Shown here in pieces: positions 4,897-53,818 of a DNA stretch of 64,000 nucleotides (its first letter is position 1; every line of letters begins with the position of its first letter). Both the position numbers and the translations under genes were made by a program. The notes beneath the pieces were generated by a model, which was not told the origin of the DNA, searched no databases, and saw only the letters and a program-made list of their open reading frames with translations. Source of the stretch: a virus; the IMG/VR virus record IMGVR_UViG_3300045988_177049, positions 1 to 64,000 of that record. One strand, given 5' to 3'.

Positions 4897-5979
4897 TCAG
4901 TGCGGAAGCTGCTGCGTGAGCGGCACAGGAACCGCTACAAGAAACACGTTCTGTTGGTAGTAACCCTGATAATTCACTCGTCCACCGCATGTGGTCAATA
5001 CTAGACGACGCTCTCCCTTCGCGCTGAAATAATCAGCGGGGAACGCCTCATGCTCAGCAGTCCACATACCATTCACTCGCCATGTGGACAAAGAACCGTC
5101 AAAACCTTTCGCCCAGATCAACTCACCCTTCTTGACATCGGTTGCCATCGTGTAGAGAGCACCACGATGTTTCTTCGTCCATGCAACATGGGAAGCAATG
5201 AACGTTGTTCCTTCTCCAAAATTTGGGGTGTTCTGATCCTTCGTTCCTTGGTTCTCGGAACCAGTAGAAGAGGAAGAGGGGGTAGGAGCAGAGGTTGGTA
5301 CAGGGTCGGAGTGAACAGTCACGTTCGTCAGTACGCCTGTATCAGACTGAGTCAGAGGCGCACCATCAGAGTACCAGACACCACGATGCACATTCGTTGG
5401 CACGTGAATAGTCTGGAGGTCGCCATACTTCGATGGCTCAAACTTGTCACTGCCTTGCACTTCCATGTAGATACCGGATTCGGGGATAAACACCGATCCC
5501 GGAGCCATGCGCGCAATAGATATGGTTTGAATCCGGTGATCCTCGGTGTTGATATCCCAGGTGTTCGACCCCTGATCCGAATCCGCGTTCACAACCGGCC
5601 ACTCATGGTTGAGCATCTCGGTTGTTGCATCAACAGGCCCGTGATCCACCTGAGCATCTTGGTACGTGTCACTCGGCAAAGACAGAGTGTCTTCGATCTG
5701 CGAGTCGGTATAGGCGCGGTACACGAGGTACCCACCACCGCCCAGCAAAGCTGCAATAAGCACGCTGACAACGCTAGTCACAAGAGCGCTTCGCTTCTTG
5801 CGTGCCTTGGCCTGAGCGACTTCCGTTCCACTGCTGTGCATGATTTCATCAAAGGTCAGCAATCCAGAGCGAGGCTCCAAGTTCGGAGCATCTTCAGCTA
5901 CCGCCTCAGAAACCTCATCAGGCTCACCAGGTGGCTGAACGCCATACTGACGAGAAACGTTATCCCAGGGGCTGCTCAT
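4897..5979 (-). CDS. Sortase-family transpeptidase (class-E-like) with N-terminal membrane anchor
   Basis: N-terminal TM segment (ALVTSVVSVLIAALLGGGGYLVY). Sortase-like beta-barrel segments. Conserved TLxTC-type catalytic motif RLVLTTCGGR near the C-terminus. The adjacent genes carry LAHTG substrates. Confidence 0.55.
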   Translation of the reverse strand: MSSPWDNVSRQYGVQPPGEPDEVSEAVAEDAPNLEPRSGLLTFDEIMHSSGTEVAQAKARKKRSALVTSVVSVLIAALLGGGGYLVYRAYTDSQIEDTLSLPSDTYQDAQVDHGPVDATTEMLNHEWPVVNADSDQGSNTWDINTEDHRIQTISIARMAPGSVFIPESGIYMEVQGSDKFEPSKYGDLQTIHVPTNVHRGVWYSDGAPLTQSDTGVLTNVTVHSDPVPTSAPTPSSSSTGSENQGTKDQNTPNFGEGTTFIASHVAWTKKHRGALYTMATDVKKGELIWAKGFDGSLSTWRVNGMWTAEHEAFPADYFSAKGERRLVLTTCGGRVNYQGYYQQNVFLVAVPVPLTQQLPH

Positions 5980-7247
5980 GCCGATGCCTTCGTCTTACGG
6001 CCCTTCGAGGTAGACGCCTGAGCGATCGAGTACAGACCCTCACGGTTGAGCGAGCGCGAATACGAGGCATCGAGGTACAGAACCGGCATTGCGTCCGCTG
6101 AGTTCATCTCGGCGACCTTCGCCAGCAGCAGCGGGTAGAGCGCGTCCTTCACAGGCCCAGAGCCACCGCCAAAGACGAACACAACCTCAGTGGTAGCCCC
6201 AACGACAGAGAGCACGCGGCCAAACTGATCGGAGACAGCGCGAGCGAAGAACTCAATCTCACGAGCAACGTATGTGCGCACCTTCTCATAGAAGTTCCGC
6301 TTCAAAGGGGACGGCTCATGCTGCAAGAAATCAGCCAGTTGCTTCCGGCTAGTAAACCCGGTGTTGAACCCTTCTGCATCCATAGATTCGAGCGCACGAG
6401 TCAGAACAGTTCCGTAACCTTCACCGAACGTTGTCGAGGCGTCAGCGTTGAACTTACCGTTGGTAAAGACCGGGAAGTTCACCGTTCCTTCGCCAATGTC
6501 GATACCAATGGTGTTGCGCGCAGCCAGGACATCTTCAGCTGTGACACCATCGAGAGCAAGACCACGGGAGCGCACGTCAGCGAGCATGGCCTGCATGAGC
6601 GGCACACCCTTCTCAGTGATTGCCCACTGAGCAGAGGCACCTTCGGCCATCACAACCACGTCATCAAAGGTGATGCGAATGGTCACAGGGGTCTCAAAGT
6701 TATGGACAGTCACCAGGTGAACACCGCCCATGAACTGAGCACTGTAGCTAGTGCGGTGGCGCATGTACTCATCAATGGGCAGTGCAACAGCAACGCGCGC
6801 CTTAACATTCAACTCACTCGTTGGCAGAGCCTTGTTCTCAGCCACGTAATCACGCAGAGCCTTCGCCGCAAAGCAGCCCAGGATCAAGACCTTGGAGAGT
6901 TCTTGCTCAGCCTTCGAGCGTCGGCCCACGACATTGAACTCATCGAACGCGCCATTAGCACTCAGAGCGCGCGTACCAAACAGGTGTCGGTACGAGTTCG
7001 AGACCATCGCCGAAGAGAACGACACATCGAGGTTATTGTAAAGATCCTCGCCGCACTTCTCCTTCGCCTCATTGTCAGGGTCAGGGAGCGAATTCGGGCG
7101 CGTCATCAACGTGACACCACTTGGAAGATCAACAGTATCAACGATCGGCTTACCGGCCTTATCGGTGCGGTCGGAGCGAATCAGGCCCTTCACATAGCCG
7201 TTACCAACGTCAATACCACCCACAAGATTTTGGGTTTGAGCAGTCAT
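5976..7247 (-). CDS. parM: Actin-like segregation ATPase (ParM/Alp family)
   Basis: Phosphate-1 motif LVGGIDVGNGYVKG. Phosphate-2 motif IGIDIGEGTVNF. Adenosine motif VFVFGGGSG. Size about 420 aa. 4-nt overlap with the downstream sortase gene. Confidence 0.7.
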   Translation of the reverse strand: MTAQTQNLVGGIDVGNGYVKGLIRSDRTDKAGKPIVDTVDLPSGVTLMTRPNSLPDPDNEAKEKCGEDLYNNLDVSFSSAMVSNSYRHLFGTRALSANGAFDEFNVVGRRSKAEQELSKVLILGCFAAKALRDYVAENKALPTSELNVKARVAVALPIDEYMRHRTSYSAQFMGGVHLVTVHNFETPVTIRITFDDVVVMAEGASAQWAITEKGVPLMQAMLADVRSRGLALDGVTAEDVLAARNTIGIDIGEGTVNFPVFTNGKFNADASTTFGEGYGTVLTRALESMDAEGFNTGFTSRKQLADFLQHEPSPLKRNFYEKVRTYVAREIEFFARAVSDQFGRVLSVVGATTEVVFVFGGGSGPVKDALYPLLLAKVAEMNSADAMPVLYLDASYSRSLNREGLYSIAQASTSKGRKTKASA

Positions 7248-7277
7248 AGGGACAATCCTTTCGTTTCAGTCTTTTTA

Positions 7278-7679
7278 CTAGCGCAACGTACCGAGTACGT
7301 CTTCAACGCTCGTCTGAGCCGGGGCTTCATATGCAGGTTCCTCATGCGCAGACACAGGAACAACGGCAGGGGTAGTGGCAACCTCATCATCTGGTTCGAC
7401 CACAGATTTAATCATCTCAGGTACAGTCGCATCCTCTGCCTCATCGGTGTTCTTTGGCGGACGGCCACGACGAGGCTGTTGCACGACGGGATAACACGTC
7501 GCATCACGGTATCCGTTGCGCTCAATCGACTCTCTAATGAGTGCTCGCACTGAATTGCTCAGATCACTTTGAGCACCGATCCATGCCAGGACAGACTCAT
7601 CGGTTTCTGGAACAGAGACACGGAACCGCTTCGGCGTAGGCCGTGGAACAGACCCCATAAAACGCTTGGGCATAGACAC
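7278..7679 (-). CDS. Small DNA-binding protein, putative ParR-like adaptor/regulator of the par operon
   Basis: 133-aa protein immediately upstream of parM in the same orientation. Basic N-terminus. AT-hook-like RRGRPPK. Sits directly downstream of an inverted-repeat region. Confidence 0.35.
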   Translation of the reverse strand: MSMPKRFMGSVPRPTPKRFRVSVPETDESVLAWIGAQSDLSNSVRALIRESIERNGYRDATCYPVVQQPRRGRPPKNTDEAEDATVPEMIKSVVEPDDEVATTPAVVPVSAHEEPAYEAPAQTSVEDVLGTLR

Positions 7680-7705: not shown

Positions 7706-7826
7706 ACCAGATGGTTCTTATCTGGTCATCTGAGAACCATCATAACACCATTCGGCTCGTGTATCAAGAGAAATGGCGCTTACCCGATCACAATCAGACC
7801 AGATAAGCGCCAGATAAGAACCAACG
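7706..7826. promoter_or_regulatory. Inverted/direct repeat cluster upstream of the par operon (candidate operator or centromere-like site)
   Basis: ACCAGATggttcttATCTGGT dyad at 7706-7726. GACCAGATAAGcgcCAGATAAGAACCA at 7795-7826 gives 14-nt inverted repeats TGGTTCTTATCTGG / CCAGATAAGAACCA. Confidence 0.5.
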
Positions 7827-15743: not shown

Positions 15744-15788
15744 CAAACCCTCTCACCAACACCCCACTCTCACAGAAAAGAGACCATC

Positions 15789-16049
15789 ATGCCTCGTCGC
15801 AACAAGCGCTCCCAGATGCATAACCTCGACGACTCTTTCGCTCTGGCGACCATGGACATCATGATCGGCGACGCCTGCCCGTGCGGTCCCGGAGGCCGCG
15901 ACTGCCCGTGTTGCGGTGACGCGCCCGGCAAAGACCGTGTCGTGGCTCGCCGCATGAACAAGCGCCGCAAGCGCCAGGAGTTCCGTCGCTCGCTCCAGGG
16001 GTACTACCGCAGTGCGCGTGAGTACTACGAGTACGAGTACGCTGGATAA
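15789..16049 (+). CDS. Small Cys-rich basic protein (putative metal-binding, SEC-C-like CPCGPG..CPCCG)
   Basis: 86 aa. DACPCGPGGRDCPCCGDAPGK cluster. Arg/Lys-rich C-terminus. Confidence 0.4.
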   Translation: MPRRNKRSQMHNLDDSFALATMDIMIGDACPCGPGGRDCPCCGDAPGKDRVVARRMNKRRKRQEFRRSLQGYYRSAREYYEYEYAG

Positions 16050-16230
16050 GCGGGTGCTAAAGCGCCCCGGTTGCAGTACTGGTACAGCCTCACTGCCTTG
16101 GCTGTACTATCTCCTGTTGCTGGCAGACAATAACTGAATATGATAGACACAGTTCACAAACAAGCCCCGCTCATGCTGTTGCATGGGCGGGGTTTTCTTT
16201 TCCTACAACAATGATCTTTTTCTCTCAGCA

Positions 16231-16302
16231 ACAGAGCGTCTATCGACGCTCCGATCTTAGAATTGATCAATATCTTCTTCTCATACCAAACGGAGAAAAA
16301 CC
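16231..16302 (+). promoter_or_regulatory. Conserved upstream promoter/operator motif, copy 3 (diverged 3' half)
   Basis: GCGTCtatcGACGCtCCGAT followed by cttagaATTGATCAATatc, about 35 nt before the ATG at 16303. Confidence 0.4.
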
Positions 16303-16464
16303 ATGCGTACTCTGACTCGTTACTTCGACAAGCTCGCTGAATGGATTGACACTGACTCACTCGCTACCTCAATGCTCAGGCTATACGCCGTCAGCTTCGT
16401 TCTCCTCATCCCCATTACAGCTGTAGTTGCCCCTATCCACTACGCTGTCACGCACCTTTTCTGA
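16303..16464 (+). CDS. Small hydrophobic protein (53 aa)
   Basis: MRTLTRYFDKLAEWIDTDSLATSMLRLYAVSFVLLIPITAVVAPIHYAVTHLF. RBS cggagaaaaacc. Followed by a strong terminator. Too short for the ORF track. Confidence 0.35.
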   Translation: MRTLTRYFDKLAEWIDTDSLATSMLRLYAVSFVLLIPITAVVAPIHYAVTHLF

Positions 16465-16472
16465 TCCCACAC

Positions 16473-16531
16473 AAAAGCCCCTGCGGGTTGGTACTGCACA
16501 AGCAGTGCTACCCCGCAGGGGCTTCTTTTTT
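16473..16531. terminator. Bidirectional intrinsic terminator
   Basis: aaaagcccctgcggg ... cccgcaggggcttctttttt with a nested gtactgc/gcagtgc hairpin. It sits between convergent genes. Confidence 0.65.
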
Positions 16532-16577
16532 CACTCAACCACTCGCTTGTCTAGCTCGTGGTTAAGCAATCAGGCGA

Positions 16578-18044
16578 TCACCACAGCCACACGGTGATAA
16601 CCCACTTACGGAAGCCCTGCCAAATGGTAGTAACCCAGTGATAACGCGAGTAGACAATCGTGGTCACTTTCCGATCGGCGCTGGGCTTCTTCGGCTGAAG
16701 CTTGACAGGCTGAGCAGACTTTGCGGACTGCTCAGACTGGGCGCTCTGGTTTGCCGACTGAGAGGGAGACGGCTGCACAGGGGTAGGGGTAGGCGTTGGC
16801 TGAGTCGGCGCTGGCTTGGGCTGCACAGGGGTAGGAGTTGTAGTCGGAGCCGGGGCCGGTTTTTCTGTCTGCACAGGCGCAGGAGTGACGCTCGGCTCAG
16901 GTTGCGTGAGAGTCGGAGTCGGAGTCGGCGCAGGTGTGACAGACGGTGCCGGAGTCGGCTGGGCAGGCTCAGCAGGCTTGTCAGCCTCAGTCTTCGGCTC
17001 ATACACTCGCACATAGTCAACATACATAGTCGCGCCCGCGCCGTCAGCACTCTTGTAATCATCGGCGTACTTGGTCGCATCGACAAAGGTCTTATCAGAC
17101 CAGTTGCTCTGCTTCGCCAAGTAGCTTCCGCCCACCATTTGGTTGAGCATCAACACCAGGTTATTGTCCTTGTCAAGGAACGGGTTGTCACCCTTAATAT
17201 CGCCCATCTTCACGGTGTGCGTCAGCGTGCCGTCGAAGTAAAACTCGATCGCATTAGCAGTCTTGCGCACGCCGTAGGTATGGAACTCACTTTGCGAAGA
17301 CGCAGTGTCACCCTTCATCATGCCCTGGTGCTGGGTGGTCTTCTTCGGGTCCCCGATCCGAGGCGTGTGCACGTTGCTCATCAGGTGGGTCGGGTCATAA
17401 CCCTTGGACTCAAACACATCGATCTCGCCATTAGCGGGATATGCACCCTTGGTGCCGGTACCCCAAAACGCCGACCACGACGGACGTGCACTCGGCAGCT
17501 TGATACGCGCCTCGGCATAAAAACCTGTGCCCGGCGCGGCATACAGCACCTTGCCGTCCTTGGTTTTCGTCGTGATCATACCGGACGTGAACGGCGCATC
17601 GTAAGTCACACTGCCATGCTTGCACGTACGTGGAATCTGAGTACCGTCCCACTTCGTCTTCGTCGGCGAGTACCTAGCAGTCAGGTTCAAATACCCATCT
17701 CGCACGGAGACGTTATCTGGGCTGTCAGTGTACTGAGCTTGCGACCGTTGAGCCGGATCGAAACAACCGTACTGATAGCCCCACTTGGTCGTATCGAGCT
17801 TTGTACCGTCGAACTCATCATGGAACGTCATCTTATAGTCACGTGCAACAGCAGTGGGTAACCCGGCAGTGCTAGTGCTAGTTGTGTTCTCTGCACTGGC
17901 AGGCGCACCTGCATTTGATGCCGCACCTACAGGCGCGGCAGTTGCAGCAGAAGTCGGTAGTACCGCAACAGATGCACCCATCGCTACAGTCATCACTGCC
18001 ATAAGTGGCAAACTCAGCTTGCTGTGTTGACGAGGGATCCTCAT
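16578..18044 (-). CDS. Secreted glycoside hydrolase family 16 (beta-glucanase/laminarinase-like) with a Pro/Thr-rich C-terminal region
   Basis: Signal peptide. GH16 catalytic motif GEIDVFES (ExDxxE). DGYLNL. PT/PA-rich linker and aromatic hydrophobic C-terminus. The ATG at 18044 is preferred over the GTG at 18053. Confidence 0.7.
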   Translation of the reverse strand: MRIPRQHSKLSLPLMAVMTVAMGASVAVLPTSAATAAPVGAASNAGAPASAENTTSTSTAGLPTAVARDYKMTFHDEFDGTKLDTTKWGYQYGCFDPAQRSQAQYTDSPDNVSVRDGYLNLTARYSPTKTKWDGTQIPRTCKHGSVTYDAPFTSGMITTKTKDGKVLYAAPGTGFYAEARIKLPSARPSWSAFWGTGTKGAYPANGEIDVFESKGYDPTHLMSNVHTPRIGDPKKTTQHQGMMKGDTASSQSEFHTYGVRKTANAIEFYFDGTLTHTVKMGDIKGDNPFLDKDNNLVLMLNQMVGGSYLAKQSNWSDKTFVDATKYADDYKSADGAGATMYVDYVRVYEPKTEADKPAEPAQPTPAPSVTPAPTPTPTLTQPEPSVTPAPVQTEKPAPAPTTTPTPVQPKPAPTQPTPTPTPVQPSPSQSANQSAQSEQSAKSAQPVKLQPKKPSADRKVTTIVYSRYHWVTTIWQGFRKWVITVWLW

Positions 18045-18199
18045 AGGGACCACACCTCTCTTTCTAATCTTTCGGTTATGTCATTGATCATGATCAATGG
18101 CCTCTACGTACAGTACATACAGGCTCGTTGAATTATAACGTACTGCGCAGCCCAGCCGAAGAACAAGAAGCTGCCAAAGAGCGGACGCTCTACCTTGAT

Positions 18200-18560
18200 T
18201 ATTCGTGGTCACCAAAGCGCCATTACAGGGTCATTGTTGACCCATTATCGCGCCATCTTTGACCCACCATTGCAACAGGTTTGGAGCTGGTCAATAACGC
18301 GCCAATATAGACCCATTATGAGACCAGATAAGAACCATTCTTTGGTCACCATTGCACCACCATAATGCATGGTCATAGAAAACCCATTATTAGACCAGCA
18401 TTAGGCCAACAAAGAACCCGATAAGAACCACGTAGTACTAGTGGTCATAGAAAGCCCATTAAAAGAACATTTATTGGTCTAATAATGACCAGATAAGAAC
18501 CACACACGTACCGTGGCGTTTATCTGGTCTAATCGTGACCATATAACGGTCAATGATGAC
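18200..18560. repeat. Iteron-rich AT-rich non-coding block (candidate origin, partition or regulatory site)
   Basis: GACCAGATAAGAACCA at 18322-18337 and 18489-18504. Partial CCGATAAGAACCA at 18416-18430. Inverted TTATCTGGTC at 18521-18530. Repeated GGTCATAGAAA(a/g)CCCATTA units and multiple CCCATTAT motifs. No ORF. Confidence 0.5.
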
Positions 18561-18619
18561 CATTTTTAGGCCACCATTGCGCCACGAAATGTGCATCCAC
18601 AGGAGCAATATGACCATCA

Positions 18620-20700
18620 ATGGGCGGCGCTGACAAAGGCGCAACACCACCACCACGCAGCCTTGCTCAGGCGGTTATTACTGCCCCATCACAGCAACGC
18701 TTGACGCATGGGTTGCGGGCGCTTGTGCGCCCATTGCTCGCCCACATGCACCCCGCGAGTTGCCAGCCATTTTCTGGCACGCAGCAACTCGTGGTACAGG
18801 CCCATGTGCCTATTTTTTATTCATGCGGAGTGATACATATGCACCTCGCGATGCATCGCGAGGTGACCCAGCCTGATGCAGATTCCTGCATCAGGCCAAG
18901 CACATACTGCTGCTGCATAGACAGCAGCAAAATGTGGCGCACAGGGGTGCACACACCCCTGTTACAGTCACGTGCGTGATGCCCGTGACAGGGCTTGTGC
19001 AAGCCCTTGGTCCATGTGGCAGTGCACCACCACCAGATGAGTCCAGAGCAGGCTCTGAAAGCATGTCACGCCGCATGTGTACTACACATACGTCGCGCCA
19101 TGCTGATGCCTCATCTGGTGGACCGTTGATGGGGGCTTCGCCGACATGTTCGTCTGTGCACATAAAGACATGCACCCGGGGTGTTCAGACCCGATGGATC
19201 CCCACCGGGTACTATCCACAGCCTCATCCACACTGTGGATAAGTCTGTGTATAAAGGGTTGATACACAGACGAATAAACGTCTCTGAAACGGCCCCTAGA
19301 AGGCCGTCTCAGAGCCTGGAATTGTGTCAACGGAGCATGTACAAGCCATGCTCCTTAACGGCGTACACGGGCCTGTACCAGGCCCCACAAGACGGGAAAC
19401 AGAACAGTGTGCCAAACCTGCGCTCGCTCGGTTCGTCACCCTGTTTCGCGGCTATTGCCGCATGGCGGTACCACGGTGCCAAGCACGCTTGTCACGTGGT
19501 CACGCCTCAATCCCGTCTGATCAGGGCAAACAGGCAGGCGTGGTACCACGTCTCGGAGGCGGTACCGCCTCAACGACCCGTGGTACCACCGGGGGTGGTA
19601 CCGCCTGTTTTCCCTTTTGTTACGCCACTTTGCCCACCTTACGCTCCCTAGAGGTCGCTGGCGGTGGAGTGGGAATAAAAGGGCATAAGAGGGGCTGGCT
19701 CAGTCGTACGCAAAGCGTACTCCTTCGGTCGGCATAGCCGACAGCCCTTCGGTCGTGGTCTCGCTCCGCTTCGACCCCTCCCTCACCTCTCTACGCTATC
19801 GCTTCGAGAGGCTCTTACTGCGCCTGTTCCGCGTTGCTCCACAGGCTTGCCCTACGCACCCCCACCGGGGCTGCTCCGGGTGCCCTTCTGCGCGTCTGTT
19901 CCAGACGCTTGAAACACGACCCAGACTCCCGTCTGTGTCACCGGGTCTCGACAATGAGACCCGCGTACCACGGCGATGGACCACATGTCGTTGCTTTGCG
20001 GGGAACACCCACAAAGCAACACCTGGGTCACCGTGGGTACAGATACCCAAGAGGGTCGCCAAGGGCAAAACACCCTCTTCGGTATCCGACAAGTCACGGC
20101 CTCATTACTTCGACCCTGATAGCACCGCCTGTTGACGTAAAAAGAACCCATGTTTTTGAGGTCAGCTCAAAAACACAGGCTCAGGAAGTAGCAAACAGCC
20201 GGATCAGACAATGGCACAACCAGAGGTTGCACCGAATGTCACCACAGGTATCACAAAAGTGATGCTCATAAGAAAAGTGGTGGGGCCACTGGTGGTGCAT
20301 CCTCTGAAAATACAGAGGGTGCATCACCCATATAAATTCATGTGCCCCGCCAAACAATATTGGCATAAAACATGGAACAAGACTGTGTACACGCCGCGCT
20401 CATCGCGCCGACATGACATACGCACAAATCTTGCCATGAGGCTCATAGATCGCTCAAAAGAAAGGCTCCATTGGATGAAAACCAATGGAACAAAACCTTT
20501 CTTCATCGCACCAAAAATGCCACACAAAGGAGGGAGTCGGGTGTCCCTGCCGGAGACACCGGGGTTCTGTTCTGAATCAAAAATGATTCCTGTAATGATT
20601 TCATCAGGTGAGAGCAGCTCGCCAGGGGCGAGCCGAGCACGCTCATAGAGACATATCGTGGTTTATAAATGACCAGATAAAAACCACGAAAACACCCGAT
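18620..20700. other. About 2 kb GC-rich region without a credible ORF, densely packed with perfect palindromes/stem-loops (candidate structured RNA or protein-binding array)
   Basis: All six-frame ORFs here have aberrant Arg/Cys/His/Pro-rich composition. Palindromes include CACCTCGCGATGCATCGCGAGGTG (18842-18865), CCTGATGCAGattcCTGCATCAGG, CAGGGGTGcacaCACCCCTG, GGGCTTGtgCAAGCCC, CTCTGAAACGGCC...GGCCGTCTCAGAG, and GGCGGTACCGCC / CGTGGTACCACG (19538-19608). Confidence 0.4.
20658..20687. promoter_or_regulatory. Operator-like dyad carrying the GACCAGATAAAAACCA motif upstream of the 20720 gene
   Basis: GTGGTTTATaaatGACCAGATAAAAACCAC, about 35 nt upstream of the ATG at 20720. Confidence 0.45.
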
Positions 20701-20719
20701 GAAAAGACAGGAGTCCCGC

Positions 20720-21235
20720 ATGACTCAGACCAACGATGCCGAGAATCGGCAAATGACCGTCATGGTCATTACGGAACCAAGCACCCCAACGTTCCAATTC
20801 GGAGAAACGATTGCTGACGCAATTGGAGAAACGAAAAAGACAATCTCTTCGGCGCAGAACGAACAAGACGTTGCTATCGTGACAAACAGCCTGTACCTCA
20901 ACGGCTGGGCGCACAAGCATGGCTACAATGCCACGCTCGTCAATGACGAGGAAATGCTCACGCGCATCACAAACGAAAATATCCCCATCATCATGATGGC
21001 TCCATCCGTTGAAAACCTCGTGATCAAACGCGGAGAACTCGCGCTCCTGCCAAACGAAGAAAACATCCTCGTCGCTATCCAAAACGAACTATTACGTACA
21101 GATGACGAAGACCAACCCGTTCATGCCGGTACACTGATTACGCTGGTACTTCCACCCGAATGCGGAATGGTACAAGCGGATAGTGATCCTGACACGTACG
21201 TCAGAATGACCGGAACACCAAAACTTTCCAACTGA
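20720..21235 (+). CDS. Hypothetical protein
   Basis: 171-aa ORF with RBS gacaggag. The longer track ORF start at 20699 is unlikely. Confidence 0.45.
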   Translation: MTQTNDAENRQMTVMVITEPSTPTFQFGETIADAIGETKKTISSAQNEQDVAIVTNSLYLNGWAHKHGYNATLVNDEEMLTRITNENIPIIMMAPSVENLVIKRGELALLPNEENILVAIQNELLRTDDEDQPVHAGTLITLVLPPECGMVQADSDPDTYVRMTGTPKLSN

Positions 21236-26593: not shown

Positions 26594-27041
26594 CATCACG
26601 TGGATCATTGTCACTACATCGCACATAAAGAAAAACGAACGGGAGCCGTCCCACCAGCTCCCGTTCGTCTGTGCATGTGCAGTCCCACATCGTCCTGAAT
26701 CTCGGTGTCCCACGAACCCGAATCAACCTGACATACAAAGCATATATGATCGGGCAACACACGGCAACAACAAATTGCAAAACTGACAACGAAGCCGTTT
26801 GTGATGTCTGACACAAACAACCCAAAATGGTCCAAAATAACGATGAAGCCCTCTGTGACATCAAACACATTTCATCACACCATACAACATGTTGATGAAA
26901 CAACATTTCATGCTCATGTGATGGCCGTCACTCCAAAAACCGATAAAAAGCCTATTGTAGCAGGTGTTGCATATATAGGGTGCTACGTGCAACACCCCCA
27001 TTTTCCCTGAGATACCAACGAAAAACAAAAAGCGTTGCACA

Positions 27042-27495
27042 AGCTGCTACACTCCAAAAACATACCTGCTACAGCACTTTTCGTTACAATTGCAACGAAA
27101 GATGTCATTTGTAGCACGCGTAGCGCGTTTTTGGCCCCATTTTGCCTAAATGCGCGTGTGTGCGCGTGTATGCGCGCGTGATACACCATGCCAAACGTCT
27201 CTGTCAAGTAACCATCTCAGGATATGAACAACTTCGCCCTCGGTATTGACAAGGGCGACCCCATCAGGTATCACGCGTGTGCGCACACGCATACGTGTAG
27301 AGACCCTTAAATACCTGCTACATTTGCTACAAAGTGGGTTTACTGGTGATATATCAATAAAAAGTGTTGTAGCAGTTTTTTAATAGAAATTATTATATAT
27401 AATAATAAACCGTTGATATACCGCCAAAAAGTCATGTAGCAGATATTTTCTAATAAATGCTACAACTGAGAAAAAACTGCTACACGCCCCTCTCA
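27042..27495. repeat. Candidate replication origin: about 9 iterons (C)TGCTACA / TGTAGCA(G) flanking an AT-rich unwinding element, plus a Pu/Py alternating tract and a GCGTGTGCGCACACGC palindrome
   Basis: Iteron copies at about 27044, 27067, 27112, 27316, 27326, 27367, 27436, 27459 and 27479. AT-rich core 27345-27425 (tatcaataaaaagtgttgtagcagttttttaatagaaattattatatataataataaa). gcgcgtgtgtgcgcgtgtatgcgcgcgtg at 27143-27180. Immediately upstream of the primase-helicase gene. Confidence 0.5.
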
Positions 27496-27543
27496 AAGGC
27501 CCGCCTGCTCCCCCGATATGAGAATAAAGCTTCGCCGAAGAAG

Positions 27544-27846
27544 CCCCACATCCACGAGAAGGCACCTGGGAGCCTCTCTACGGCCCGAACAGAGGCTGGG
27601 AGCTATGTGGGGGGGGTGCACAAATAAATGTTCGTGGCTTTAAACAGCCGTTTAGAACGTCCTATGCACATCCGACTTCATGACCACTGCTCACTGAGTC
27701 TCGTCAACATAGGACTCGAACCTCACTGACGAATCTCCCCACCCACGAGAACGCACTCAGGAGCCTCTCTGCGGCCCTGAAAGGGACAGAGAGCTATGTG
27801 GGTACCCAAACCTATTTTCATGGCTTCTAAAGCCCGTTTAGACGCG
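27544..27846. repeat. Two imperfect direct repeats of about 110 bp (27544-27659 and 27737-27846), each with internal dyad symmetry
   Basis: CCCCACaTCCACGAGAAgGCAC..GGAGCCTCTCT.CGGCCC..A..G...GAGCTATGTGGG ... TTCgTGGCTTtAAAcaGCCGTTTAGAaCG aligns at about 75% between the copies. The outer stem is CCCCACAT/ATGTGGGG. Confidence 0.5.
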
Positions 27847-28137
27847 TTAACGAACATATGAGCTATTGCACCTCACGAATACGCGCTATCGCGCGTCGAG
27901 AGGTAGTGCCCGAATACAAAAACGGGTAGCATGATTGATGCTTACCGCCGCCCGCATGAACTTGCGGAGCGGCTCGAAATGATATACGATTCCTTTGGTG
28001 TATGAAGAGACTCCGATCATCCCACATGATCAAAGTTCCACGATTTATACCCTGACATTGCGAAAGAAGGTCCCACACATGCTACTTCCCACGTACACTC
28101 TTTCCTCTGTCACCTCAACCGTAAAGGTGGGGTGGCA

Positions 28138-49544: not shown

Positions 49545-49643
49545 CCGTCTATTCGCTCATCACACCATCGATCGGTCAGTACCGCCACTGGCCGATTGAT
49601 GGCTTATTCATACACTTATTTATATTCAGAAAGGAAGGCTTTC

Positions 49644-51527
49644 ATGCCCATCCTCTTGGAAAGCATTGATACCGCAGCCGCTCAGATCAATACCGTTGCT
49701 GAGGCGGGTAAAGCCCGCACGATCAAGGCTGTCACTCCCAAATTCTTCTCGTCCTCTCTGACCGGCCAGGGCAAGAAGCAAGGCGTGCTGAACTCTTCCG
49801 TTGTCCCCGGTTTCTACCCTATGGGTCTGAGCCGTGCAACGATGGGAAGCACCGACATTCGCTATAAGGAACGTCGCACTTCGAACAACGTCACCAGCCA
49901 CATTATCCCCATCGGCACTGTCGTTCGACGCGCCTATGAGCAGGGATACGGCTATATGAAGGTTCCCGTCCCCTCTGAGGCGAACGCATTCTCCGTGCGC
50001 TTGACGAGCGATACCGACGACTTCGATATCTACGCATCCTGCCACGTACAGGGCCTCGTCATGCGCGAGGATCGTAGCGGACGAGAAATGGTCAAGGACC
50101 TTGCCGTCTCGTACCGCACGATGCTCTACGTCGTTCCGCCCGTAAAGGACGAAGACGTTGACGACCTGGAAGCTCAGATGGACACTCTGTGCGACCAGGA
50201 TCTCGCCTCTTGCGACATCGATGATCCAGACTTCATCGACGCAAGCGACGAGGACATCATGGCTTTGGACGATGAGTCTGTCGATTCACTCGTCCTGAGC
50301 GTAGACGATGACTACCGCACTCGTGCCACCCTGCTGAACATGTCGGCGTCCAACTTCCGCAACCTCTCGTATCGCATGAGTGTCGAAGGCCAAGCCTGGG
50401 CCATTGTTGACTGGAGCTATGCTCCCGTCGAAGATTCCATCGACCTACCGTGGAACGACATCCTGTGCGCCGTAGGTATCGATCCTTCGCGCCAGAACGA
50501 GTTCCGTGACACTCTGAATCAGTTCTACGCTGATTACAGCGTCTACGAGAACATTACGTACAGTGCGCAGCGGTGGACCAGCAATGGTATCGCTGAGGAC
50601 ATCCGAGACGTTGTTGCCGCTCTTGTACCCAAGACCCGCACCTACAACGACGATCAGTTGGCTCAGATGGTCTACCAGCTTCGCTACATGGAGCAGTACA
50701 GCGTTCCACTGCCTGCCTACCGCGAAGTCTACACGGCCATCAACACACTCTGTGACCCTCAGACTGCATCGCGTCTGATGAAGCAGAACATGAACCTGCT
50801 GATGAACGAGACCTTGCACGAGCTGGGATCTCACCGCGACGAACTGGAGCGTGCACCTCAGTCGATGGCAACCACTCCGATCCAAGGCCAGCTCTCACCT
50901 CAGCAGAAGGCCGCTGTGTGCTCGACTGAGCCTCTCTCCATCACTCAGGCAGGAGCGGGCGCTGGTAAGAGCACGGTGATCCTTGCTCGTATCAACCAGC
51001 TCACGCTGTGCGGGGTCAACCCCTCGGACATCACTGTGCTGTCGTTTACGAACGCGGCGGCGGACAACATCATCAAAAAGAACCCCAACGTTCGCTCGAT
51101 GACCATTGCCCGCATGATCCATGATCTCTACATGACCTACTTCCCCACCCACGAACTCAGCTCTGTTGAAACGATCGCGAACTCTCTGGGTATCTACATG
51201 CCCGGAGACGCTTTCGCGCTTCAATTCTCTCAGCGTCTTCGTCGGTTGGAAGGTCGTGATGCACAAGGTGCCTACACCTCGCTGAACAACTTCATCGAGG
51301 CACACCTTGAGCAAACCGTTGACGCTCTGAACCTCATTAAGCAAACGTCCTTGGAACTAGAGATCATCCTCGCGTACCAGACGATTGATCGGATGCCGCT
51401 GCCTTCGGGTCTGAACATCCGCCACCTCATCATCGACGAGGTACAGGACAACTCCGTCTTTGAGTTCATCTACCTGCTCCGCCTTGTGAGCAAGCTCAAG
51501 GCATCACTTTTCATCGTGGGTAAGCAT
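49644..51527 (+). CDS. UvrD/PcrA-like SF1 helicase, exon 1 (long N-terminal extension plus motifs I, Ia and II)
   Basis: RBS aaaggaagg. Motif I ITQAGAGAGKSTVI. Motif Ia VLSFTNAAA. Motif II IIDEVQDNSVFEF. The reading frame then runs into ..SLFIVG. The exon boundary is approximate to within a few nt, because a 2-nt discrepancy in my base counting could not be resolved. Confidence 0.55.
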
Positions 51528-52582
51528 TGCTCACGTTAAACCCTACTAATTGCGGGAAACTCATGTTTTCGCGATAACGACCGCGACTATTGAGAAACCA
51601 ATAGTGCAGCAGATGAGATAACGCTCATCGGATGGTAACACCGTTATCGTCAATGACAATCCGCAGCCAGCCACCCCAACGTCAAGCCGTGGGTGGAAGG
51701 TTCATCGACTATCGAACGCGCTGACACATTATCAGCAATAAGCCATGAGTAATCCCATGGCGAAGCAAGTAGAGTAGCGACCACACACGCATCATGTGGT
51801 ACGCGAAATGATGGGCATGTTTGGTATACTCTACCTAACATGAAGATATAGTCAACCAATTCACGAAACGAGGAAACTGATGCTGTCCTCACCTGACATC
51901 AACAGACGACATTCGCTCAACACATACTTTTTCGACACCATCCATAATGAAGCACAAGCTTATTGGCTTGGTTTCTTATGGGCTGATGGATCATGGTCGA
52001 AAACCGCTCCACGGTGCAGTGGCCCCAACAGGCTCACTCTTAGCCAGAAGCTCTCAGAGATTGATCATCTCCAATTGTTTCTAAACACCCTTGAAGCGGA
52101 TTACCCCATTCGACGTGTTAACAACGGATACGGACTAGCCGTCGCCGTACACATTAACAGTCGACCTTTGTGCGTAAGCCTCGAACAATTAGGTTTTGCG
52201 CGTAAAGACCAACGTGTTCATATTCCACCGATACCATCGCATTTACTACATCACTTTGTTCGTGGATACTTTGATGGGGATGGATGTCTATCTGTCTATC
52301 AACAGACAGTTGGTAATGCCGTCATCAATAAGCAGGAATGGTCCCTCACTGGACACCCCAAATTCATCGCAAACATTCGTCAGCTTATTGAGCAAAACGT
52401 TGATGTCTCTCAACGAGTGAAGATCAAGACTTATAAACGTACCGATAAAGCTGTCACTTTACGGTACGGCAAAAAGTCCGATATCTCCGCTCTCTATGAT
52501 TACTTGTACCAAGATGCCACCGTGTATCTTGACTCAAAGTATCAACGATTCGTAGAGTTCTTCACTCGTGAGAAGAACTAGG
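51528..52582 (+). mobile_element. Putative group I intron (about 1.05 kb) interrupting the helicase gene, carrying a LAGLIDADG homing-endonuclease ORF
   Basis: Helicase motif III is split as FIVG | DASQTLYEFRSA across three different reading frames, so this is not an intein. The upstream exon ends in T and the insert ends in G, as expected for a group I intron. The HEG ORF ends 1 nt before the predicted 3' splice site. Confidence 0.5.
51880..52581 (+). CDS. LAGLIDADG homing endonuclease (two-motif, single-chain)
   Basis: Motif 1 AYWLGFLWADGSW. Motif 2 VRGYFDGDGCLSV. 233 aa. RBS acgaggaaact. Confidence 0.8.
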   Translation: MLSSPDINRRHSLNTYFFDTIHNEAQAYWLGFLWADGSWSKTAPRCSGPNRLTLSQKLSEIDHLQLFLNTLEADYPIRRVNNGYGLAVAVHINSRPLCVSLEQLGFARKDQRVHIPPIPSHLLHHFVRGYFDGDGCLSVYQQTVGNAVINKQEWSLTGHPKFIANIRQLIEQNVDVSQRVKIKTYKRTDKAVTLRYGKKSDISALYDYLYQDATVYLDSKYQRFVEFFTREKN

Positions 52583-53818
52583 GATGCTTCCCAGACGCTC
52601 TACGAGTTCCGTTCGGCAAACCCGAAGGCCCTGAATGCTCTTGAGGCATCGGGTGTCTTCACCCCCTACAAGCTGGAGACCAACTATCGGTCGAACCAAG
52701 AGGTTCTGGACATGGCTAATGTTCACCTTTTGTCCGAGATCGAAGCCAACCAGCTTGCACAGATCCGCCTTCGTGCAAACTCGCTTGTTCCTGTGACCGC
52801 GCAGTCGTTCCAAGACAAGGTTCATGTCGTCCATGAGCACTACACCTCTGATGCCAAGTTCATTGGCGACCTGCCTAAGCTGCTCTCTCAGCACACCTAC
52901 ACCTATGTTCAGGACTGCCTGAGCCGTGGTGAACAGGTGGCGTTCTTGGCCTTTACCCGCCGAGAAGCGTTCGCTGTCCAAAAGCGCTTGGAAGAGATGT
53001 TCCCAGGCCGTTCCGTCATCTCGATGATCTCGGACAGGCGTCGCGCGTCGACGTTCTTCTCGGCCTTCATCAAGATGTACTGGTCTGACATCGAGGCCGT
53101 GGATCCCGCAAACGCCGCATACGTGTTTGCAAAGGAAATCATTGCACGAGGCCCCGCCAGCAATGCCCAGGCTCAACAAGCCTTGGCAAAGATGGCGAGC
53201 GAGTGGTGGACTGAATCGGGTTCGGCCATCCAGGGATGGATCTACGAGTACCAATCCGCCATCATCACCAAGGAGACCTTCTTCGATCGCTTGAAGAAGT
53301 GCATCCTTGATTACGAAATCCGGTACAACTCGATTCGCGATGCTCTCATGCACCGCAACAACGAGGAACGCAAGATTCGTAACCTGGAAACCAACGCTGA
53401 TCTCATTGTCTCCACTGTTCATGGAGTCAAGGGTCTTGAATTTGACAACGTTGTTGTCATCTACAAGGATCAGTCCGACATGAGCGAAGAAAAGAAGAGG
53501 CTCTATTACGTCGCGTTCACGCGCGCGAAGAACTCTCTGTTCGTTCTTTCTCATGGCACCACGTTGTCCGCGCGAATCCTCAGCGACTACAACCTCATCG
53601 TTGACTCGCTGACCCAGCCCGGTTCTACAGACAATGAGGACGAGGATACCGCCACCACTGTTACAGTGGTAAACGAAGATGATGTCCCCAGCGAGGAAGA
53701 TACTCCTTGCTCGGATGCCACCGATACCGATGGCTTTGCTGCTACACGTGCTCTCGTCGCCAGCATCCAGACCGACCTTCCAGGTCTGTCTGCAACTGAC
53801 GATGAGGACGACGCGTAG
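52583..53818 (+). CDS. UvrD/PcrA-like SF1 helicase, exon 2 (motifs III-VI)
   Basis: Motif III DASQTLYEFRSA. Motif IV LETNYRSNQEVLDMAN. Motifs V/VI VSTVHGVKGLEFDNVVV and YVAFTRAKNSL. Confidence 0.55.
   Translation, partial: DASQTLYEFRSANPKALNALEASGVFTPYKLETNYRSNQEVLDMANVHLLSEIEANQLAQIRLRANSLVPVTAQSFQDKVHVVHEHYTSDAKFIGDLPKLLSQHTYTYVQDCLSRGEQVAFLAFTRREAFAVQKRLEEMFPGRSVISMISDRRRASTFFSAFIKMYWSDIEAVDPANAAYVFAKEIIARGPASNAQAQQALAKMASEWWTESGSAIQGWIYEYQSAIITKETFFDRLKKCILDYEIRYNSIRDALMHRNNEERKIRNLETNADLIVSTVHGVKGLEFDNVVVIYKDQSDMSEEKKRLYYVAFTRAKNSLFVLSHGTTLSARILSDYNLIVDSLTQPGSTDNEDEDTATTVTVVNEDDVPSEEDTPCSDATDTDGFAATRALVASIQTDLPGLSATDDEDDA

Follow-up and report, generated by a model that had tools for sequence, protein, structure and literature searches.

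Positions 19283–19997 of a viral DNA are probably the gene for a large folded noncoding RNA (ncRNA), at least ~0.7 kb long and without a match among described RNA families, whose structured flanks are lineage-specific. The DNA analyzed, hereafter the window, comprises positions 1 to 64,000 of IMG/VR virus record IMGVR_UViG_3300045988_177049 and appears to belong to a ~105–120-kb temperate phage-like element of oral Schaalia/Actinomyces. The conserved core lies in a gene-free stretch of 2.6 kb (18054–20719) between a minus-strand GH16 gene (16578–18053) and a plus-strand gene starting at 20720. We infer the transcription, strand, and ends of the candidate RNA from comparison of related sequences. 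For a palindrome-rich part of this stretch, the first-pass annotation had proposed one or more structured ncRNAs, an array of protein-binding sites, or a recombination hotspot. The structured ncRNA is the candidate supported by conservation, by compensatory changes that include long-range helices, by replacement of hairpins, and by the lack of a coding signal.

Conservation and distribution of the core

A DNA search of GenBank phages and PLSDB plasmids with positions 18000–21000 gave no match. A protein search with the GH16 sequence recovered 25 IMG/VR contigs of 57 to 253 kb, the closest relatives being 105 to 126 kb in length. Close relatives have ~90% identity across the entire intergenic region. 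In a distant clade, whose GH16 protein is only ~60% identical, positions 19290–19979 still exhibit 81 to 85% nucleotide identity, and the flanks are not alignable. The core is the best-conserved DNA of the locus; within each clade it retains 0.9 to 1.0 majority identity, more than any other part of the intergenic region. Its sequence is constrained more strongly than the neighboring genes.

Besides the 18 to 22 IMG/VR contigs that carry the core, scans with conserved patterns recovered it from 54 metagenome contigs and from a metagenome-assembled genome labeled "uncultured Actinomyces sp." (three contigs). Each element has one copy, always in the same intergenic region. Using nhmmer, 35 distinct full-length copies were obtained together with natural partial variants; the structure statistics below were computed on 44 distinct copies, and an earlier alignment contained 12 sequences. 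Viral-contig scans with three further conserved patterns returned the same clade only, apart from three contigs (L045, L047, and L048; L numbers are our designations for contigs and loci) that were chance 18-mer matches and were rejected by nhmmer. The more distant GH16 relatives L019 to L026 have neither the intergenic region nor the candidate RNA, and we found no description of this candidate RNA in the literature searched.

Compensatory changes and the predicted fold

In the 12-sequence alignment the core consists of long invariant runs, and the differences occur as complementary pairs. RNAalifold predicted 195 pairs from this alignment, 20 of them with compensatory double changes. The structure derived from the 44 copies has 175 pairs in 27 helices, in which 98.5% of cells are paired, compared with 95.2 ± 0.1% in shuffles and 41 to 47% when partners are slid. 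The first-pass annotation had suggested covariation analysis against homologous elements as a check: 36 pairs are changed on both sides, against 19.8 ± 1.9 in shuffles (0 of 500 reach 36), a control that ignores the relatedness of the copies, and 4 to 11 with slid partners. The covariation score is 0.100 for the structure, 0.053 for shuffles, and 0.021 to 0.035 for slid partners. A fold of the minus strand gives numbers equivalent to those of the plus-strand fold, and folding of the 715-nt core against shuffles gives z-scores of −8.76 and −8.18, one per strand.

The core constraint acts on base pairing, including that of long-range helices. Double changes are found in helix 3 (19360–19370/19617–19626), whose arms are 250 nt apart and where pair 53–348 is UA in 25 copies and CG in nine, and in helix 5 (19390–19397/19511–19518), whose arms are 115 nt apart and where pair 86–237 is GC in 27, AU in six, and GU in four. 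Covarying helices with arms this far apart require a single-stranded molecule. The predicted fold resolves into two domains, of which the second is the more conserved (Table 1). Helix 6 has five pairs with double changes. A hairpin of domain 2 (19751–19782) occurs in three unrelated sequence versions, each of them hairpin-forming, and the tips of hairpins in the core accept insertions of 8, 17, and 34 nt and so behave like expansion segments. The long hairpin at the left boundary of the core has a homolog in the distant clade, with tip insertions of 13 to 26 nt and variable tip length. A long-range pairing of 19942–19965 with 20095–20118, checked by eye, has no compensatory support.

The GGTACC palindromes as helix arms

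A cluster of GGTACC dyads had been singled out in the first-pass annotation and is real: five copies of the hexamer fall within 136 bp (19467–19602), although over the whole window GGTACC is not over-represented (22 in 64 kb, against ~17 expected). In the predicted fold these units form helix Px, in which GGCGGTACCA (19464–19473) pairs with TGGTCACGCC (19497–19506), and units c1 to c4, which are enclosed by helix 19524–19535/19603–19614. Unit c1 (19540–19551) pairs with c3 (19576–19589), enclosing the c2 hairpin (19556–19571), and c4 (19592–19606) is mostly unpaired in the prediction. Helices 7 and 10 have double changes in six of 10 and eight of 18 pairs, respectively, together 14 of the 36 covarying pairs.

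The changes in these units are mutually complementary. In the L005-type lineage, c1 changes from GGTACC to TGTCCC and c3 to GGGACA, and the Px arms become GGGACAC and GTGTCC. L016 has a substitution in c1 with a compensating one in c3; in L071, c1 is GTAAAC and c3 GTTTAC, complementary to each other but unlike Px; and in L054 nearly all units have become GTTAAC. The GGTACC palindromes form the arms of helices in domain 1 and are not simple binding sites. The earlier suggestion of a protein-binding array finds no support for these units, since they change in complementary pairs and lose their palindromic form in the L005 type. An array of binding dyads would keep the same duplex motif regardless of mutual complementarity, and the GGTACC units do not. 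A hexamer common to different helices would fit partner exchange or intermolecular pairing.

Hairpin density, coding potential, and comparison with known RNA families

The ~2 kb without a credible open reading frame (ORF) described in the first-pass annotation are indeed gene-free, and the gene-free stretch is wider, extending from 18054 to 20719. Database homologs of the ORF that opens at 20699 cover it only from residue 8 on, which places the gene start at the ATG at 20720. Not one of the 10 ORFs inside 18620–20648 matches Pfam at E ≤ 0.1. All of the palindromes listed earlier were recovered in place, including a 24-bp perfect palindrome at 18842–18865, and their density is as high as had been claimed: 18620–20700 holds 31 perfect stems (at least 7 bp, loops of at most 8 nt, nested registers counted), compared with 1.34 ± 1.39 in dinucleotide shuffles (maximum 8; 0 of 200 reach 31) and 2.96 ± 1.97 in equal-sized tiles of the rest of the window. 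Distinct hairpins number six, five, and four per kb in the 18–21 kb bins and at most three in every other kb. The hairpin-rich, gene-free stretch is a real feature, beyond chance. Its description as GC-rich applies to the 19–20 kb bin only (59%, versus ~53% for the window) and not to the 18–19 and 20–21 kb bins (~50%). Two more stretches of the window lack an ORF of at least 90 aa, 15744–16577 (834 bp) and 26907–28131 (1225 bp); they hold one and two perfect hairpins, respectively, and are not hairpin-rich.

No protein is encoded in the core. The 227 variable gap-free core columns are distributed over the three codon phases as 80/69/78 (p = 0.64), that is, without periodicity, and single-nucleotide indels occur in conserved blocks, with 287 single-base gap runs summed over sequences. 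A conserved coding frame in homologous elements, which would have told against a structured ncRNA, is therefore not seen in the codon phases, and there is no Pfam match.

At the gathering threshold, Rfam 15 models matched the whole window only at transfer RNA (tRNA) genes in 1–1332. For 17900–21000, both strands, the only match at E ≤ 5 was a chance-level one to ctRNA_p42d at 20454–20502 (19.3 bits, gathering threshold 50, E = 1), over the hairpin at 20465–20491. The Rfam comparison proposed earlier thus gives no family match to the core on either strand at E ≤ 5. Rfam 15 families whose covariance models fail on the core include GOLLD, ROOL, OLE, HEARO, raiA, transfer-messenger RNA (tmRNA), RNase P, group I and II introns, and riboswitches. 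ARAGORN recognized neither a tmRNA nor its parts (tRNA-like domain, tag frame) when run on the window and on nine loci, of which seven contain the candidate RNA; it did find the tmRNA gene of the host in L107 and L108. With the Rfam tmRNA model, L107 scores 155.7 bits, and the core region has no match. A divergent or expanded tmRNA was rejected on these negative ARAGORN and Rfam results and because the host tmRNA (L107 5761–6138) is unrelated (no match by nhmmer).

Strand of the candidate RNA

Of the two strands, the minus strand is the likelier one from which the core is read, which would make the gene co-directional with the GH16 gene. Unpaired columns on the plus strand are 33% T, 30% C, 20% A, and 18% G, and the invariant ones among them are T in 48, C in 44, A in 20, and G in 15. 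A T/C-rich loop composition on the plus strand means A/G-rich loops on the minus strand, as is seen in known structured RNAs. In each of the 12 sequences the minus strand has the lower minimum free energy, and 11 of the 16 hairpin-plus-T-run sites are on that strand, one of them at the left edge of the core. In a strand-neutral test based on hairpins that are perfect in one genome, the relatives contain 88 distinct A·C and 49 distinct G·T pairs, which favors the minus strand. Plus-strand transcription, suggested by a canonical plus-strand terminator beside the chromosomal copies described below, was considered and dropped, because the host loci show that this terminator belongs to ssrA.

Recombination with a chromosomal copy beside ssrA

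Contigs of the L086 type (GC 60–70%, without an inserted phage) hold only positions 19612–19940 of the core. This copy is flanked on one side by an IS30-family transposase and on the other by ~170 bp, a terminator, and a CoA-disulfide-reductase gene. Homologs of the reductase place the locus in Schaalia odontolytica, where the gene order is smpB, two ABC permeases, ssrA, a transposase, and the reductase, and where a genuine tmRNA was found by both ARAGORN and Rfam. To the right of the L086-type copy, the sequence from CTCCACCA onward, including the terminator, matches the ssrA 3′ end and terminator of CP046315.1 at ~82% over 98 nt. Chromosomal-type copies thus lie ~170 bp from the ssrA 3′ end core, and the profile of the candidate RNA gave no match to ssrA loci that lack the island. 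Judged from these alignments, the chromosomal copies mark the right end of elements that are integrated at ssrA, and the partial copies are not truncations. Because the terminator aligns with ssrA and the profile finds nothing in island-free ssrA loci, the candidate RNA element is neither a tmRNA nor a host housekeeping gene. We had considered that an island inserts into the RNA gene and that the partial copies are its attL, attP, and attR; this was dropped, since the host loci show that the copies end ssrA-integrated elements.

Junctions of two reciprocal kinds were found. In right junctions (L050, L068, L074, and L076), phage DNA leads through the candidate RNA into the tail of the island; in left junctions (L104 and L097), the IS30 side leads through a hybrid domain 2 into phage DNA and on to the genes right of 19944. 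The sequence type switches at ~19730–19790 in both kinds. Contig L061 looks like a deleted prophage remnant. The junctions indicate that domain 2 (19612–19940) is the homology by which the element recombines into the chromosomal copy, which itself terminates an island integrated at the ssrA 3′ end. The recombination hotspot proposed in the first-pass annotation stands insofar as the junction contigs show recombination inside 19612–19940 with a chromosomal copy beside ssrA, a role that had not been foreseen. The elements would accordingly be temperate, or would at a minimum use domain 2 to recombine with the island. The 330-nt repeat could in principle have produced assembly chimeras; both reciprocal types, however, recur in several samples and in both phage clades. 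Neither the ssrA 3′ end nor the island tail was matched in the 64-kb window, so that an attP carrying a copy of the host ssrA 3′ end was not found within it.

In place of a domain 2 hairpin, GTACGC-nnn-GCGTAC (19705–19719), some phages belonging to both clades have the chromosomal-type sequence GTTCGCTACGCTCTC, which cannot form this hairpin (L006, L099, L102, and L062 compared with L086 and L061, alignment columns 430–450). This mosaic suggests frequent exchange between the phage and island copies.

The locus seems to attract insertion sequences (IS). In chromosomal copies, an IS30-family transposase (HTH_38 plus rve; L086 11563–13197) directly adjoins the RNA sequence, with the junction precisely where the palindrome cluster ends (window equivalent 19611/19612), and the copies in L054 and L071 adjoin IS3-type rve transposases. 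The rve, IS30, and IS3 transposases were considered as marking an IS-associated guide RNA, a candidate that is not favored: three IS families in varying orientation look like insertions into an IS-rich region. The host tmRNA gene, ~5 kb downstream of smpB (L107 224–9671; S. odontolytica CP046315.1), is itself an insertion hot spot. Depending on the strain (L086, L061, L050, or L104), the interval between ssrA and the CoA-disulfide-reductase gene is occupied by a transposase, by an island whose end is the 330-nt RNA fragment, by a 1486-aa STAND-type NTPase, or by a complete phage.

Flanks of the core, the 16-mer array, and gene content of the element

The structured element is probably longer than the 715-nt core (Table 1). 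Among nine genomes of the window clade, 17% of the paired columns of the left flank vary, compared with 42% of the unpaired columns. The stem of the hairpin at 18908–18929 is wholly replaced by a different perfect 9-bp stem in L088 and L007, and across the flank the stems persist and the loops vary. The distant clade has a different sequence here, with analogous hairpins at the same place whose stems are likewise conserved and whose loops are variable. To the right of the core, the strong hairpins at 20144–20182 and 20465–20491 each precede a T-run on the minus strand, where one or two small RNAs divergent from the gene at 20720 may be encoded. Other small RNAs may be present in the flanks.

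Left of the hairpin-rich stretch lies an array of 16-mers, GACCAGATAAGAACCA, which we regard as a protein-binding array separate from the structured core. The motif has eight sites at three loci in the window, compared with 0.43 expected. Sites outside the array are at 7712–7727 (minus strand), 7797–7823 (plus strand), and 20671–20686, the last being the operator that the first-pass annotation had located near 20658–20687. The 7712–7823 cluster is upstream of a small ORF and an actin-like (ALP/ParM-type) gene, 5976–7679 on the minus strand. The 16-mer may serve the element as a centromere-like motif or a global operator.

Table 1. Features of the gene-free stretch between the GH16 gene and the gene at 20720
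Feature	Positions	Strand	Description
Operator/iteron region	18054–18620		Between the GH16 gene start and the hairpin-rich stretch
16-mers GACCAGATAAGAACCA	18322–18337, 18415–18430, 18487–18502; 18514–18529		The last site inverted
Left flank	18621–19282		Lineage-specific stable hairpins; not alignable with the distant clade
Left-flank hairpins	e.g., 18842–18865, 18871–18896, 18908–18929, 18941–18962, 18990–19007, 19030–19121, 19226–19240, 19243–19271
Conserved core	19283–19997	minus favored	Candidate large structured RNA, ~715 nt; conservation, covariation, fold z-scores
Long boundary hairpin	19283–19314		CTCTGAAACGGCC...GGCCGTCTCAGAG; weak T-run after it on the minus strand, terminator-like site
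Domain 1 (predicted)	19360–19626		Closed by 19360–19370/19617–19626; contains 19390–19397/19511–19518, hairpin 19404–19444, and 19524–19535/19603–19614
GGTACC cluster	19464–19606		Helix Px and units c1–c4
Domain 2 (predicted)	19634–19940		Most conserved part; closed by 19680–19684/19882–19886; long invariant runs, e.g., AAAAGGGCATAAGAGGGGCTGGCTCAGT
Clade-variable segment	19998–20094		Hairpins 19990–20020 and 20042–20086
Block homologous between clades again	20095–20185		Ends in hairpin 20144–20182, with TTTTT after it on the minus strand
Further hairpins	20191–20719		Include 20465–20491, terminator-like on the minus strand
Operator GACCAGATAAAAACCA	20671–20686		Just upstream of the gene starting at 20720; one mismatch to GACCAGATAAGAACCA

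No structural genes were recognized, and the designation of the element as a phage rests on the IMG/VR classification and on its replication genes (DNA polymerase, D5-type primase, RecJ, and dNMP kinase). Genes of the window encode tRNA-Gln, a dNMP kinase, a D5-type primase-helicase, a DNA polymerase matched at the family level, RecJ, SNF2, UvrD-like and ClpB-like ATPases, a MazF toxin, a sortase, and an actin-like segregation protein. The left end holds three tRNA genes, one truncated and two for tRNA-Gln with anticodons TTG and CTG (1–54, 223–296, and 1261–1332). A UvrD-type helicase is apparently split at 49596–53818, with the N-terminal domains at 49596–51539, the C-terminal domains at 52568–53818, and a LAGLIDADG-domain ORF between them (51880–52581), which suggests an intein or a homing-endonuclease insertion.

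Discussion

We consider 19283–19997 to be a probable RNA gene whose transcript or transcripts, including the structured flanks, may cover much of 18620–20190. The molecule would be RNA rather than single-stranded DNA, and by analogy with the large phage-borne RNAs GOLLD and ROOL it could act in trans as a structural RNA or a ribonucleoprotein scaffold. Its mutually complementary palindromic helices may permit partner exchange or self-association, and the same DNA would double as a recombination substrate via domain 2.

Several observations weigh against this reading. All copies come from one narrow group of elements with ~79% mean column identity, so that many compensatory changes are shared by descent and independent events are fewer than the cell counts suggest, a relatedness to which the shuffle control is blind. 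Single-stranded DNA would fold identically. With regard to strand, neither the wobble in helices predicted on both strands (21 G·T and 30 A·C cells; mixed intermediates) nor the z-scores separate the two, the alifold energies are similar on both, and no convincing conserved promoter or canonical terminator flanking the core was found in both clades. With regard to self-association, the c2 loop (UGUCCC) and c4 (GGUCCC) of the L005 type are not mutually complementary, and a simple kissing-loop dimer is therefore not general.

The core could alternatively act as DNA, as an attP-like recombination site and/or an origin of replication beside the iteron array, with its hairpins forming in single-stranded or supercoiled DNA. 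This is unlikely, although it would account for the recombination of domain 2 with a chromosomal copy, seen in both junction types, for the position of the chromosomal-type copies so close to the ssrA 3′ end core, for the adjoining iteron array, and for pairing statistics that are symmetric between the strands, as expected without selection on either RNA strand. For a recombination site, however, a short core with protein-binding arms is required rather than 175 conserved pairs, and covarying helices with arms 115 and 250 nt apart are impossible by cruciform extrusion. Domain 1 (here 19312–19611) is outside the chromosomal homology, yet it is equally conserved and has most of the compensatory changes. 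The window is moreover without homology to the ssrA 3′ end, and the composition of the loops is strongly strand-asymmetric.

Two further explanations fare worse. It is improbable that the GGTACC dyads at 19464–19606 are an array of sites for a dimeric protein (an operator, partition site, or decoy) that co-evolve with the specificity of that protein. Five to six similar palindromic units within 150 bp would suit such an array, as would the concerted change of nearly all L054 units to GTTAAC, expected if one protein reads them all; but the L005-type units are no longer palindromes and still are pairwise complementary (c1/c3 and the Px arms), the c1 change of L016 is compensated in c3, and c1 and c3 of L071 match each other and not Px. 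The units are also embedded in a larger covarying fold, and the clear binding-site motif of the element is a different 16-mer, GACCAGATAAGAACCA. An unrecognized protein-coding gene or genes in the core can be given hardly any credence. All 35 full-length copies have 568 alignment columns under a stop-free plus-strand frame of at least 70 codons, but with only 17% A on the plus strand, several frames are open simultaneously and overlap, and the amino-acid composition is implausible; the absence of codon periodicity, the single-nucleotide indels in conserved blocks, and the lack of a Pfam match argue in the same direction.

The preferred reading, a large structured RNA, has parallels among known systems, which are analogs and not relatives. 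GOLLD and ROOL are large "ornate" phage and prophage RNAs that form Rfam families and whose structures have been determined by cryo-electron microscopy (PMC12286853). The candidate RNA resembles them in its size class (at least 0.6 kb), in having many covariation-supported helices in multi-helix domains, in being carried by a phage or prophage in one copy per element without an associated protein gene, and in self-complementary elements that could mediate RNA–RNA contacts. With 175 to 195 pairs, 36 of them double-changed, it has both the length of at least 500 nt and the many compensatorily supported helices of this kind of RNA, and it lies outside coding regions on IMG/VR contigs of 105 to 126 kb. 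Adjacency to tRNA genes, frequent for this kind of RNA, is by contrast absent, the tRNA genes at 223–1332 being ~18 kb away. The core also differs from GOLLD and ROOL in matching neither covariance model, in its Actinomycetota host (theirs are Bacillota or come from lake metagenomes), and in serving also as homology for chromosomal insertion. Like OLE (~600 nt), it would be a large, highly conserved, and intricately folded bacterial ncRNA, but OLE is chromosomal, in an operon with oap genes in anaerobic Bacillota, and its model does not match the core.

At the DNA level, the chromosomal-type copies directly beside the ssrA 3′ end and terminator recall the ssrA targets and attP mimics of integrating elements, and the use of a structured-RNA-like sequence as a recombination site recalls tRNA and tmRNA targets; the homology here, however, is 330 nt common to two mobile elements and not part of a host gene. 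The array at 18322–18529 and the site at 20671 are of the iteron, operator, or parC type, and the 16-mer recurs upstream of the actin-like (ParM/ALP) operon. The core differs from such arrays in lacking the repeated 16-mer and in having palindromes that pair with each other and covary as helices.

To our knowledge, only a handful of bacterial ncRNAs longer than 500 nt are known (GOLLD, ROOL, OLE, the raiA type, and a few others), and their functions are mostly unsolved. Recent structures have revealed assemblies made of RNA only, which were unexpected. This set would be enlarged by another large RNA unrelated to them, which would come from a different phylum and from a temperate element of a common human oral bacterium. 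A bolder proposal, which we put forward only tentatively and think rather doubtful, is that the candidate RNA is the first of a new class of giant RNAs of Actinomycetota mobile elements, a two-domain, partner-swapping or multimerizing scaffold that is also a DNA recombination platform beside ssrA. If that were true, helices of GGUACC, GUUAAC, or UGUCCC/GGGACA that change in concert would allow partner swapping or assembly into multimers like the cages of ROOL and GOLLD. A transcript that also included the structured flanks could approach 1 to 2 kb, which would place it among the largest nonribosomal bacterial RNAs. The 44 distinct copies, with natural variants that include domain-2-only copies, swapped hairpins, and concerted palindrome changes, would make the system tractable for structure determination and genetics. 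A structured-RNA gene that overlaps a chromosomal insertion site would be unusual, and the overlap could explain its retention on mobile elements.

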